Assembly: GCA_040235515.1 (NCBI GenBank)
Contig: JBECKX010000106.1
Coordinates: 1 to 21,784 of the forward strand
Direction of reading: 5' to 3'
Length of the DNA: 21,784 nucleotides
Source of the DNA: Candidatus Zixiibacteriota bacterium
GTDB lineage: Bacteria > Zixibacteria > MSB-5A5 > CAIYYT01
The translations under genes were made by a program, and so were the position numbers. Each line of letters begins with the position of its first letter. Within the stretch, counting starts at the first letter, position 1. The notes beneath the pieces were generated by a model that worked only from the letters and a program-made list of their open reading frames with translations, did no database searches and was not told the DNA's origin. Below are positions 2,182 to 10,142 of the stretch, one piece after another.

Positions 2182-3264
2182 TTACAGCTTCACCAACTCA
2201 AACGTGTCATTGGCGAAGCGTACCTCTACTTCCGATCCCTCGGGAAAACGTCCGTCGATGATTCCAATCGAAAGCGGGTTGAGAACCTCTTTCTCAAGGA
2301 CCCTCTGCAACGGACGCGCACCCATCTCAAAGTTATACCCGCGCTTGGCGATTTCGTCGCGCGCATCCGGGCTCACCTTGATGGTCATCTTCTGTTCCTT
2401 GAGAATCTTATTGATCACATTCAATTGGATATTCACGATTGTGTTGATTCCCACCTCGGTCAGCGGGCGGAAGATAATCCACTCAAGGCGGTTGAGAAAC
2501 TCCGGTCGGAATTTTGCCTTGAGAATGTTCATCATTTCGTCGCGATCCACCGGCTTCTCCTCGCGGTAGCACTCAAGGATATATTGCGACCCGAAGTTTG
2601 AAGTCAGGATCACGATCGTGTTGGTGAAATCGATGGTGTTGCCCTGACCATCGGTGAGGCGGCCGTCGTCCAAAAGCTGAAGCATGATGTTAAACACATC
2701 GGGGTCAGCCTTCTCGACTTCGTCAAACAGCACGACCGAGTAAGGGTTTCTCCGGACGCTCTCGGTCAGGAGTCCGCCGGCGTCATAGCCCACGTAACCG
2801 GGGGGCGCGCCGATCAATTTCGCCACGGAGTGTTTCTCCATGAACTCCGACATGTCAAAGCGCACCATGTTCTTCTCGTCATTGAAAAGAAACTCCGCCA
2901 GGGTCTTGGCGAGCTCTGTCTTTCCGGTGCCGGTCGATCCGAGGAACAGAAATGATCCGATCGGTCGATTGTGTCGCTTCAGCCCGGAGCGGGAACGGCG
3001 CACCGCTTCAGAGATCGTCTTAATCGCCTCCTCCTGGTCCACCACTCGCTTGCCGAGATGATCCTCGAGCTTAAGCAGCTTCTCGCGTTCATCCTGAAGC
3101 ATCCGGTTGACGGGGATCTTCGTCCAGCGCGAGATCACGTAGGCGACATCCTCCGGACCCAGCTTCTGATCCTCAGCCATCACGAACTTCTCGAGGCTCG
3201 ACAGCTTCTCCAGGTTCTCCTTGAACTGCTGGATTTCGTTCTGTTCAGTGCGTTCAGTTTCCAT
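2182..3264 (-). CDS. ClpB/ClpV-family AAA+ ATPase, C-terminal half (NBD2 plus small C-terminal domain)
   Basis: VISRWTKIPV linker, Walker A GSTGTGKT, pore loop GAPPGYVGY, Walker B LFDEVEKA, FRPEFLNRL and GARPL. Own AGGAG RBS at 3278-3274 before ATG at 3264 (TTG at 3267 is an alternative start). Confidence 0.9.
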   Translation of the reverse strand: METERTEQNEIQQFKENLEKLSSLEKFVMAEDQKLGPEDVAYVISRWTKIPVNRMLQDEREKLLKLEDHLGKRVVDQEEAIKTISEAVRRSRSGLKRHNRPIGSFLFLGSTGTGKTELAKTLAEFLFNDEKNMVRFDMSEFMEKHSVAKLIGAPPGYVGYDAGGLLTESVRRNPYSVVLFDEVEKADPDVFNIMLQLLDDGRLTDGQGNTIDFTNTIVILTSNFGSQYILECYREEKPVDRDEMMNILKAKFRPEFLNRLEWIIFRPLTEVGINTIVNIQLNVINKILKEQKMTIKVSPDARDEIAKRGYNFEMGARPLQRVLEKEVLNPLSIGIIDGRFPEGSEVEVRFANDTFELVKL

Positions 3265-3278
3265 CAATCATCACTCCT

Positions 3279-4700
3279 CTAAACCCTGCCCGTCCAGAGC
3301 GAGAAGAGTTCATCAAATTTCTCGTTGAATGCGGCAATCTTACCTCTGACTTCACCATCCAGCCCTTCTTCGTTTTCGCTGTCGAAGGCACCGCCCAGGG
3401 TCTTCTTGATCTCCTCGGCTTCTTGCTTCAAAGGCCCGAGACCATTCTTCGCCCTCGTGCAATTCAGGCGAAATGACGCAGAGGCTTCATCGAGCAGGTC
3501 GATAGCTTTGTCGGGAAGAAAACGGTCGCCGATGTAACGCTGCGACATCCGAATCGCTTCACTGACCACTTCATCGGGAATCGACAGCGCGTGGTGTTTG
3601 CCGTATACGTCACGAACGCCCTTCAGAATCTCGAACGCTTCATCGAAGGTGGGTTCTTCCACCATCACACGCTGGAACCGGCGGTCAAGCGCCTTGTCTT
3701 TCTCTATGTACTTGCGGTACTCTTCAAGCGTCGTCGCTCCGATCACCTTGAAAGCTCCTCTGGCCAGTGCCGGTTTGATCAGATTGGCGGCGTCCATACC
3801 GCCACTGGGGTTGCCGGCACCCACAATCGTATGAATCTCATCGATATAGAGGATCAGGTTGCCTTTACCCTTGGAGAGTCGGGAGATCAGATTGTTGAAG
3901 CGTTCTTCGAATTCACCCTTGTACTTCGCTCCCGCGACCAACTGCCCCAGGTCAAGCGCCAGGATCGTCGCGTCGTGCAACTCAGGGGTCGTCTCTTTGT
4001 TCGCGATCTGAATCGCCAGACCCTCCACGAGTGCGGATTTGCCCACTCCCGGAGGACCAACCAGAATCGGGTTGTTTTTGCGACGGCGGATCAGCACGCG
4101 AGAGATGTTGTAGATATCCTCGGTGCGTCCGAAAAACTTGTCAAAATCACCCTTGCGCGCCTTCTCGGTGAAGTCGGTGCAGTACTTGATTCCCTCTGCG
4201 CCAGCTGCCTCAGACTCCCCCTCCGTCGAAACAACACCACCGCCGGTTGTGATGGTGTCAAGCGCGGTGATATCGGCGAGGGCATCGATGATCTTGCCTT
4301 CGTCGAAGTCCATCCGGCGTTTGATCTGCTCACTCAGCGGCGAATCTGGCCCGACGAAAACCATCAGGATATGCTGCGGGCCCACCTCGGCGTCGGAATA
4401 CTTATCTTTGATCTTGGTCGCCCCTACCAGCAAAGACTGCAGTGCGGGTGACGCGACTGGTTTTACTTCATCTGCCGCTGATTTGCCCAATTTCGACAAT
4501 TCATCGGCAACGAGGTTTTCGAAGTACTGCGGTTTCTTGCCAAGCTGCTTGAGCAAACCGCCCAGGGAATTCGATTCGTCACGAAGTAGTGCCAGGAAGA
4601 GATGCTGAGGACGAATTTCCGCGTGAAAATAGCTTTTTGCCAGCTCCTGCGCCCGCCTGATAGCGTTCTGCAGGTCCGACGAGAGGGAACCTAAATCCAT
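3279..4700 (-). CDS. ClpB/ClpV-family AAA+ ATPase, N-terminal half (Clp-N repeats plus NBD1); TssH-like by context
   Basis: Two Clp-N repeats ([21 protein letters not shown]), [18 protein letters not shown]alker [19 protein letters not shown] Walker [10 protein letters not shown] and [12 protein letters not shown]. Confidence 0.9.
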
Positions 4701-8561: not shown

Positions 8562-8873
8562 CTACTCCGGCCTCCATTGGTATCTAGCAAGATTGATTCT
8601 ATCATCCCGGTCAAACTTAACCCCCTCCTTGATCAGCAGCGATTTCTGCAATTCGTATCCGTTGCCCTTTTCGAGCGAGATGCCACCCTGCTTATTGATT
8701 ACCCGATGCCACGGCAGTTCTTCGCTGCTCGAGTACGCATTGAGTAATCGCACCACCTGGCGTGCCGCGCGAGGGCTGCCGGCGAGCGCAGCGACCTGGC
8801 CATAGGTGACCACGCAGCCACGCGGAATCGCCTTGAGCACCCGGATGACATCAGCGGAAAATTGGCTCGGCAT
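8562..8873 (-). CDS. atl: Alkyltransferase-like protein (MGMT family, Atl/YbaZ type)
   Basis: IPRGCVVTYGQVAALAGSPRAARQV and PWHRV (Trp in place of the catalytic Cys of PCHRV). 103 aa from ATG 8873. Confidence 0.9.
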   Translation of the reverse strand: MPSQFSADVIRVLKAIPRGCVVTYGQVAALAGSPRAARQVVRLLNAYSSSEELPWHRVINKQGGISLEKGNGYELQKSLLIKEGVKFDRDDRINLARYQWRPE

Positions 8874-8950
8874 GATTGAGTGACTCCCTGTCGCTAAGTT
8901 CAGGGGGAAATATAAGCTGCATACTTCTGAATGTGGAGCACAAATAAAAT

Positions 8951-9457
8951 GACCGAACCCGGAGAGTGGCCGCCGCATCGATTCGGGGAGGAGTGAATCG
9001 ACGCGACTCGTAGTTGAGACTACTCGGGCACGAGTTTGGGAAATCCACTTCCGGCATCATTACCGCTCATCTGCATTCCCGGAAGGTACTGACCGGGAGG
9101 CAGGGAGGTGTCGACGGTCGCGGCGAGATTAAGTCTCTCCGGCAAACCCACTCACTGGAAGCAATCTCTGGAGGCACTGCTTAACGGGCGGCGGCGAGCG
9201 CAGGTACTGATCAGTTCGAGTGCGCTGTGACTGACAAGTAGCGCAGGTTCCTTGGCCGCGGATAGTTCGACAATCGGTTGCGCGAATGTGACTCGCCCGC
9301 GAGTCGGTTGCCGCGAAACGTCGCTTGCTTGCCGTGTGCAAGCGGTCTCGCCGGACATTTTGAGCGAATGATGCTGTTGAGTGAAGTTCGTGCCCCTGGC
9401 CTGTTTCTCCCGCCAGAGCATCAACGGGATCTGCAGGCGTTTACGCCGGGTTCGGTC
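8951..9457 (+). ncRNA. Candidate large structured non-coding RNA of unassigned class (~507 nt)
   Basis: Perfect 12-bp terminal helix 8951-8962/9446-9457. Nested long-range helices 9026-9037/9384-9395, 9046-9050/9379-9383, 9052-9061/9367-9376, 9064-9069/9361-9366, 9106-9112/9354-9360 and 9121-9130/9344-9353, plus many local hairpins. Non-Watson-Crick pairs are mostly G-U on the + strand. No credible ORF. Confidence 0.75.
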
Positions 9458-9614
9458 GCACGGACTTACTGCATGGTTCGTATCCCCAGTTATCGGAGTG
9501 ATTCACTCCATATCTGATTCATTCCGGCACATTGTCCGAAATTGAAACGCCGTGTGCAGGCGCTGAACAACAGCGCTTGACCTGCAAGCATAATCATGCT
9601 TGCTTATCCACACC

Positions 9615-10142
9615 ATGGACCAGAAATCGTATGACCACCAAAGCGAGATACTCATTCGTGATCTGAATGGGGCCGACTCTCTCGAGGAACTCACCATCCT
9701 CCTCAACCGCGCCTATGGCTACCTGCAGCGGATGGGTCTGAAGTTTCTGGCGACCCATCAGGATGCCTCCATCACCCGGCGTCGCGTTGAAAGCGCGCGC
9801 TGCTTCGTGATCGAAATCGCCGGCGAGATCGTCGGCACGGCCTGCTACTACGACCCGGAACACTCTCGCGGCTGCAGCTTCTACGAGCGGCCCGATGTCG
9901 GTACCCTGGCACAACTTGCGGTCAAACCGGAGCTTCAAGGTAAGGGTCTGGCGACTCGCCTGGTGCAACGCGTAGAAAAACAGGCTCGCGCCGATGGCTG
10001 CAATTATCTCGCCCTCGATACGGCGGAACCGGCGCACCACCTGATCGAGTGGTACAACCGCATGGGATATGAGTTCATCTGTTATCACCAATGGCCGGTA
10101 ACCAACTACCGCAGCGTGGTGATGGCCAAGAGGCTGGCGTGA
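9615..10142 (+). CDS. GNAT family N-acetyltransferase
   Basis: LAVKPELQGKGLATRLV acetyl-CoA motif A; LALDTAEPAHHLIEWYNRMGYEF. Start at ATG 9615 or TTG 9600. Confidence 0.92.
   Translation: MDQKSYDHQSEILIRDLNGADSLEELTILLNRAYGYLQRMGLKFLATHQDASITRRRVESARCFVIEIAGEIVGTACYYDPEHSRGCSFYERPDVGTLAQLAVKPELQGKGLATRLVQRVEKQARADGCNYLALDTAEPAHHLIEWYNRMGYEFICYHQWPVTNYRSVVMAKRLA

Follow-up and report, generated by a model that had tools for sequence, protein, structure and literature searches.

The intergenic element at positions 8951 to 9457 of the DNA analysed here, a stretch of 21,784 nucleotides (nt) from a Candidatus Zixiibacteriota bacterium (GenBank assembly GCA_040235515.1, contig JBECKX010000106.1; "the window" denotes this whole stretch), is a candidate for an independent gene encoding a lineage-restricted large structured non-coding RNA (ncRNA) of an undescribed class. 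The probability of this reading was estimated at about 0.5. The RNA core would be about 507 nt long (8951-9457), or about 620-630 nt with a conserved extension on the right-hand side. The element sits in the spacer between two divergent genes, one coding for an ATL-like protein (atl) and the other for a GNAT protein. An earlier note, made from the letters of the window, had proposed a large structured ncRNA at this place. What stood of that proposal is that the sequence is non-coding, conserved and self-complementary over long distances; the covariation comes from three sequences only, and the ncRNA is the best reading, with the status of a candidate.

Selection and base pairing

Three distinct versions of the element were compared: that of the window (genome G000), that of a genome of the same genus (G001, contig L010) and that of the metagenome contig L016. 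The four-fold degenerate sites of the GNAT gene were 30-43% identical in all three pairs, i.e. saturated, and those of atl, measured for G001 versus L016 only, fell into the same range. Overall nucleotide identity of the flanking genes was 65-73%. In the three-way alignment the element was 64-68% identical from one arm of its closing helix (P1) to the other and 66-73% identical in the right-hand extension, and a 27-nt block containing the right arm of P1 was the same in the window and G001. Conservation along the element was mosaic, and the spacer just left of the A-rich run that borders P1 could not be aligned among the versions. Gap runs in the pairwise alignment of the window with G001 included 1, 2, 3, 4 and 41 columns, thus they were not multiples of three throughout. 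Six-frame blastp comparison of the three versions matched short segments only, in all frames and switching between them, and no open reading frame (ORF) was shared; on this result a hidden small protein was dropped as a reading. The conservation of the element against saturated neutral sites, the odd indels and the lack of a shared ORF showed that this DNA is non-coding and is held as such by purifying selection well above the neutral level.

Base pairing was assessed in a strand-neutral consensus structure, in which G-U pairs were forbidden so that neither strand was favoured. It contained 118 pairs in 22 helices. In this structure 91.2% of the cells paired, compared with 31-40% when the partners were slid by 1-3 columns, and 15 of the 118 pairs were changed on both sides (0-5 after sliding), a value reached in none of 500 shuffles. 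The core domain (46 pairs) behaved similarly, with 92.7% of the cells paired versus 28-48% after sliding, and 7 pairs changed on both sides versus 0-1. The comparison with shuffled sequences on both strands, which the earlier note had called for, also favoured folding: the fold of the window had a z-score of -2.5 on the + strand (1 of 100 shuffles as good) and -5.5 on the - strand (0 of 100). For the consensus energy of the three sequences, tested against column shuffles, the z-scores were -4.1 (+) and -7.9 (-), and none of the 60 shuffles was as good on either strand. Judged by the alignment, the closing helix is conserved, and the long-range trunk and several arms keep pairing despite sequence change.

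Architecture of the element

The element is bounded by a perfect 12-nt inverted repeat (8951-8962 and 9446-9457) with 483 nt between the arms. This pairing, which the earlier note had pointed out, proved exact in an inverted-repeat search. The left arm of P1, GACCGAACCCGG, is complementary at 12/12 positions and invariant in all three versions, and a single L016 change in the right arm, CCGGGUUCGGUC (read as CCGGGTTCGGTC), gives a G-U pair on the + strand. A perfect inverted repeat of at least 12 nt was found in 49 of 3000 mononucleotide shuffles of 8800-9650 (851 nt). The A-rich run at 8942-8950 reads on the - strand as the U-tract AUUUUAUUU, directly 3' of the closing helix. The junction of A-run and P1 recurs in G001, where ACAAAAAAG is followed by GACCG, and in L016, where AAAAAAAT is followed by GACCG.

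Inside P1 the first hairpin is P2 (8974-9005; stems 8974-8984/8995-9005), with 12 pairs, three of which are changed on both sides: the segment GAUUC/GAAUC of the window and L016 appears as GAAUC/GAUUC in G001. Its 10-nt loop (8985-8994), GGGGAGGAGU on + and ACUCCUCCCC on -, is nearly invariant. The small hairpin P3 (9010-9023, GUAGU-UGAG-ACUAC) is present in the window and L016 and poor in G001 (72% of the cells paired). Then follows the trunk, which was found, together with most of the arms listed in the earlier note, in the minimum-energy fold of the window. Its helix T1, GGGCAC/GUGCCC (9026-9031/9390-9395), has 6 pairs with 94% of the cells paired, and includes one G-U (in G001) and one A-C (in L016). 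T3, CACUU/GAGUG (9046-9050/9379-9383), is replaced by CACAG/CUGUG in G001 and by CACAU/AUGUG in L016, and in T4, CGGCAUCAUU/AAUGAUGCUG (9052-9061/9367-9376), one pair is C-G in the window and A-U in G001 and L016. T3 and T4 together contribute 10 pairs to the strand-neutral consensus, three of them changed on both sides. The helix CGCUCA/UGAGCG (9064-9069/9361-9366) belongs to the trunk in the minimum-energy fold of the window.

On the inner side of the trunk lies an arm with the stem UCCCGG/CCGGGA (9077-9098), which keeps GGUAC in its loop; at the inner end of the stem the window has a G-C pair, G001 and L016 an A-U pair. The next block, GGGAGGUGUCGACGGU (ACCGUCGACACCUCCC on -; 9103-9118), is invariant in the three versions and mostly unpaired. 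It is followed by a variable arm (9121-9175) found in the window and L016 but largely missing from G001, which lacks 41 alignment columns of it. Two of the structures proposed earlier, the arm at 9137-9173 and the 5' half of CGGCGAGAUU/GGUCUCGCCG, fall within this absent stretch.

The best conserved core domain extends from 9176 to 9358. It contains two AGUUCGA heptamers (9213-9219 and 9264-9270), the hairpin UGCGCU/AGCGCA (9221-9226/9240-9245) and a hairpin at 9322-9344 that is CGCUUGC/GCAAGCG in the window and CGCCUGC/GCAGGCG in G001, with a C-A intermediate in L016. The arms at 8974-9005, 9077-9098 and 9322-9344 thus recur with compensatory changes; one that the earlier note had listed, at 9290-9305, is not kept in the relatives. 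All three versions fold the terminal arm (9396-9445) as a long hairpin, built of largely different sequence, and this part aligns poorly. Structured RNAs typically show both features, an arm that varies or is absent and a terminal arm made anew from other sequence.

The 3' boundary proposed at 9457 could not be maintained. Conservation continues outside the closing helix to about 9572, and this extension (9458-9572; 66-73% pairwise identity, as given above) includes helices 19-22 of the strand-neutral consensus, a hairpin at 9495-9509 and the blocks GCACGGACUUA, UUAUCGGAG, CUGAUUC, GAAAUUGAAAC, UGUGC and CUGA.CA. Further right, CTTGACCTG (9576-9584) is kept in all three versions and might serve as a promoter element in one direction or the other; the promoter search called no consensus site there.

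Probable strand and possible role

The earlier note had described the imperfect pairs as mostly G-U on the + strand and had derived the orientation from them. The strand-neutral consensus did not bear this out: its non-Watson-Crick cells comprised 6-7 G-U, 13 A-C and 18-22 other combinations, and A-C on + reads as G-U on -. Several further features favoured the - strand. Where compensatory changes pass through an intermediate, in the 7-bp helix that closes the core and in the hairpin at 9322-9344, that intermediate is A-C on +. The z-scores were lower on - in all three versions, though base composition contributes to this difference, and a transfer test (see below) gave better results on -. 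On this strand all three versions have a U-tract immediately after P1 (AUUUUAUUUG in the window, UUUUUUGUUUG in G001 and AUUUUUUUGG in L016). As a pointer in the same direction, the closing helix of the G000 gene for signal recognition particle (SRP) RNA is followed by UGUUUUUUUAUU, and the CCA of its transfer-messenger RNA (tmRNA) by AAAUUUAUUUU. A promoter-like site of atl, located just past the U-tract, was also counted for the - strand. On balance, the evidence leans toward transcription of the - strand and leaves the + strand a substantial share.

The element is inferred to be transcribed as a unit of its own. On the - strand, P1 and then the U-tract would end transcription and leave the ends of the RNA locked in one helix, as in the SRP RNA gene of G000 (contig C42), where a closing helix is likewise followed by a U-tract. 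Unlike the element, the SRP RNA is much shorter and matches the Rfam model RF00169 (65 bits). The left end of the element matches the start of the SRP unit, ACCGAACCCGGTGATCGGCCGCC, at 20 of 23 nt, which with an E value of 2.95 is at the level of chance. The working surfaces of the RNA might be its invariant unpaired blocks: the P2 loop, the block at 9103-9118 and the two AGUUCGA heptamers. The first two read CCUCC on - and GGAGG on +. RNAIII of Staphylococcus aureus is 514 nt long and has 14 hairpins, long-range helices and C-rich loops that pair with Shine-Dalgarno sequences. If read from the - strand, the element would share with RNAIII its approximate size, the domains closed by long-range helices and, in its two conserved CCUCC motifs, C-rich unpaired sequence. 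GGAG-type Shine-Dalgarno sequences occur upstream of atl in the window, G001 and L016, so that a trans-acting - strand RNA could use its C-rich loops in the manner of RNAIII. This analogy is doubtful, and unlike RNAIII the element has neither an embedded peptide ORF nor a quorum-sensing locus nearby, and no homology to it. Alternatively, the RNA could serve to scaffold a protein or to assemble with itself, like OLE, ROOL and GOLLD. The complete proposal, an ornate RNA of at least 500 nt forming a new class that arose in, or is confined to, one genus of an uncultured sediment lineage of the Fibrobacteres-Chlorobi-Bacteroidetes (FCB) group, with P1 as terminator stem and with unpaired blocks mediating Shine-Dalgarno pairing or the assembly of RNA or ribonucleoprotein, is tentative and somewhat short of an even chance.

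A number of observations weigh against an RNA gene of this kind or against its - strand. The covariation is derived from three distinct sequences, all of them close relatives, which makes a significance test of the R-scape type impossible, and the alignments used for counting were also those from which the two consensus structures had been derived. In the transfer test the minimum free energy (MFE) pairs of each sequence were carried over to the other versions. Pairs with any change were canonical in 34% (+) and 42% (-) of the cases, compared with 35-46% for slid partners, and enrichment was seen for doubly changed pairs only (52% on + and 58% on - versus 30-43%). This signal is modest; MFE errors and misaligned arms dilute the test. 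The most conserved 50 nt of the core (approximately 9197-9245) allow two mutually exclusive helices, both invariant. Some of the helices proposed earlier failed in the relatives: GAGUUU/AAGUUC shifts its register, in AGGUGUC/GACAUUU the 5' side does not vary whereas the 3' side does and fails to pair, the GG-GAAA-UC branch consists of 2 bp and is not conserved, and the 9290-9305 hairpin is not retained. Neither in the window nor in L010 or L016 did the search call P1 as a canonical intrinsic terminator, which has a short GC-rich hairpin with a loop of 3-8 nt before its U-tract, and since P1 encloses 483 nt it is not a canonical terminator hairpin. A consensus sigma-70 promoter was likewise not found beside the element on either strand in these three sequences; the site on the atl side was the only one called in the window, and nothing was called in L010 or L016. 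The strands themselves conflict. The raw MFE is lower on + in all three versions (by 2.6, 15.9 and 11.5 kcal/mol), the excess of G over C and the purine-rich conserved loops fit +, a GAAA loop in two versions was counted for +, and in L016 the hairpin at 9495-9509 retains G-U pairs on +. GTTCG occurs on + 5, 4 and 5 times in the three versions against an expectation of 0.6-0.8, with four copies invariant. In the window these sites are at 9214-9218, 9265-9269, 9386-9390, 9450-9454 and 9476-9480, including both AGUUCGA heptamers, which recall T-loops; CGAAC occurs once in the window element, in the left arm of P1. Moreover, a near-even mixture of G-U and A-C would also be expected of a palindrome at the DNA level. 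Finally, no RNA runs were listed among those covering 8600-9900, which were four DNA runs of one study; their contigs, which cover the region in part, had no differences, joints or variants relative to the window and are uninformative about expression and inversion.

The conserved folding could also belong to a cis-acting leader or attenuator. A - strand transcript starting at about 9570 would stop at P1 and the U-tract or read into atl and the downstream gene; alternatively, a + strand leader would run into a GNAT-MATE operon. In the window and L016, P1 and the U-tract precede the start codon of atl by 75-78 nt, no + strand terminator was called between the element and GNAT, and the neighbouring genes, coding for ATL, DNA_alkylation, GNAT and MatE proteins, are stress or detoxification genes, a group often under RNA control. 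However, atl has its own promoter-like site, TCCACA-17-TATATT in the window, between the U-tract and its start, and reading of the sequence found TATAAT or TATATT at the equivalent position of G001 and L016. The distances to the genes also vary: the G001 element lies 146 nt away from atl, and approximately 130 extra nt precede the GNAT start there. A length of 500-630 nt is far above that of known riboswitches and leaders, and the sister genus g3 has a GNAT orthologue without the element. A leader thus appears unlikely.

Still less probable is an element acting as DNA, either an invertible segment bounded by the 12-bp repeat or a dense palindromic regulatory region, with the folds as by-products. 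A conserved perfect 12-bp inverted repeat around 483 bp between divergent genes would suit such an element, G-U (6-7) and A-C (13) are both frequent as if neither strand were favoured, and the 4-5 copies of GTTCG in one orientation could mark protein-binding sites. But recombination or operators do not explain nested helices spanning 320-360 nt with compensatory changes, nor arms that were rebuilt. No mobile-element or recombinase family was detected among the 17 window ORFs scanned, and the orientation was the same in all four independent assemblies (window, G001, L016 and the metagenome contig L017).

Known families, distribution and neighbourhood

A search with Rfam 15 gave no match at the gathering score in the whole window and none even at E≤10 in 8800-9700 on both strands, in agreement with the claimed novelty. 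The families covered include OLE, ROOL, GOLLD, HEARO, raiA, RNase P, tmRNA, SRP, 6S, RNAIII and group I/II introns. ARAGORN found no gene in the window, i.e. no tRNA-like or tmRNA-like cloverleaf or tag. Normal genes for RNase P (289.7 bits, contig C184), tmRNA (191.4 bits, C142) and SRP RNA (65 bits, C42, RF00169) are present on other contigs of G000; the element is thus not a disguised housekeeping RNA. 6S RNA (RF00013) was found nowhere in G000, and the element is about three times as long as a 6S RNA. A sponge of the CsrB/RsmZ type was rejected: GGA occurs 14, 10 and 11 times in the three versions against 11.8, 12.8 and 13.5 expected, thus without excess. The SRP gene of G000 (L134 1385-1601, on C42) is preceded by a promoter close to consensus, TTGACT-17-TATTAT. 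As this site lies about 80 nt before the Rfam small-SRP match, the SRP RNA may have an additional domain at its 5' end.

BLAST over 61 related genomes found a single homologue, in G001. A covariance model (R1) built from the best conserved core (9176-9358) matched only G000 and G001, both in the whole family, which equals the order (21 genomes), and among 151 class members and 151 phylum members. One metagenome scan added L016, which is clearly divergent (121.7 bits on R1), and L017, with 99.5% identity to G001. Of the 16 differences that separate L017 from G001, not one falls inside the element, where approximately 2.7 are expected, weak evidence of constraint. A scan of genome contigs matched the contig of G001 and one Microbacteriaceae 20-mer, which scored 9.7 bits on R1 and was dismissed as chance, as was a match in the genome G048 (E 0.09) lying within a 468-aa ORF. 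Viral contigs yielded 83 and 10 stretches in two scans; when 90 loci were screened with R1 the best E value was 0.65, again chance. In the sister genus g3 a GNAT orthologue is present in 13/13 genomes (52-56% amino-acid identity), and in G007, the one g3 genome inspected, it has another upstream gene and a spacer of about 270 nt without the element. By these sequence searches the element is restricted to one genus-level clade of uncultured sediment bacteria.

G000 contains one full match to the element, all others being at most 28 nt long with E>1. A single copy does not make a family of miniature inverted-repeat transposable elements (MITEs), and the many genomic copies that the earlier note had named as a refutation of the ncRNA were thus not seen. 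The element resembles MITEs in its size of about 0.5 kb, its perfect 12-bp terminal inverted repeats and its ability to fold, and differs from them in being single-copy, syntenic in three species and under purifying selection. The bases beside the repeats, AAAAT before GACC and GCAC after GGTC, show no visible duplication. Although terminal inverted repeats at both ends and the occurrence in genus g1 only, with a different gene and a short spacer preceding the g3 orthologue of GNAT, could be the traces of a non-autonomous mobile element that was inserted in the ancestor of the genus and then co-opted or slowly decaying, such a relic is very improbable, as there is no other copy in G000 at E<1 and no visible target-site duplication beside the arms, the viral-contig matches are no better than chance, conservation far above the saturated neutral level excludes plain decay, and co-option as an RNA would merge this explanation with that of an RNA gene. 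In a separate count, ACCGAACCCGG was found in 11 copies in G000 (1 for the reversed control) and in 4 copies in G001. Outside the element these copies have no common flanks and are mostly coding-looking, and were ascribed to chance or composition.

As an RNA gene, the element would add a new class to an established kind of RNA, the large and ornate ncRNAs of bacteria. Few bacterial ncRNAs longer than 500 nt are known to have complex conserved folds, namely the rRNAs, RNase P, tmRNA, group I/II introns, OLE, ROOL and GOLLD. Each new class of large RNA has tended to show unexpected biochemistry. A further class in an uncultured lineage, if confirmed, would lengthen this short list and would mean that such RNAs can be young in evolution and narrowly distributed. 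In the abstracts of two reports OLE is given as about 600 nt long (PMC9723947, PMC12054373), and in that of a third OLE, ROOL and GOLLD are all described as forming homo-oligomers, assemblies made of RNA only (PMC12286853). Like these RNAs, the element belongs to the class of approximately 500-800 nt and has many helices with conserved unpaired blocks between them, and for all of them alike the biochemical function is not established. Unlike them, it matches no Rfam model, theirs included, and occurs as three sequences in one uncultured sediment clade, not in Bacillota or in phage contexts. Genes for proteins of the type that partner OLE do not lie beside the element. The texts returned by full-text searching, as far as their excerpts go, did not describe such an RNA in Ignavibacteria or Zixibacteria.

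The intergenic setting named in the earlier note was borne out by the flanks. The spacer (8874-9614) separates the ATL-like gene (8562-8873, - strand, PF01035) from the GNAT gene (9615-10142, + strand, PF00583), and the order atl(-)/element/GNAT(+) is the same in all three versions. Beyond atl the window has a DNA_alkylation (PF08713) gene and beyond GNAT a MatE transporter gene. In G001 and L016 the gene after atl codes instead for a Cys-rich protein with CPCC...C motifs (132 and 174 aa; L010 357-755 and L016 195-719, both on the - strand), thus synteny on this side stops after atl. The extra sequence before the GNAT start in G001 (L010 1885-2057) contains a perfect 8-bp hairpin, GGGCTCCATACATGGAGCCC. 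Immediately preceding the start codon of GNAT in the window (9604-9612) is TTATCCACA, which we take to be a perfect match to the DnaA-box consensus; as it is not kept in L016 or G001, the likeness is probably due to chance.

The rest of the window is ordinary chromosome, with sheath genes of a type VI secretion system, a ClpV-like ATPase, a Ser/Thr kinase, a hydrolase, a serpin and amidohydrolases. The ClpV/ClpB-like AAA+ ATPase (2182-4700, - strand), next to TssB/TssC (159-2039), reads as two ORFs, one with Clp_N, AAA and AAA_lid_9 domains (3279-4700, - strand) and the other with AAA_2 and ClpB_D2-small (2182-3267, - strand), which could reflect a split gene, a frameshift or a sequencing error.

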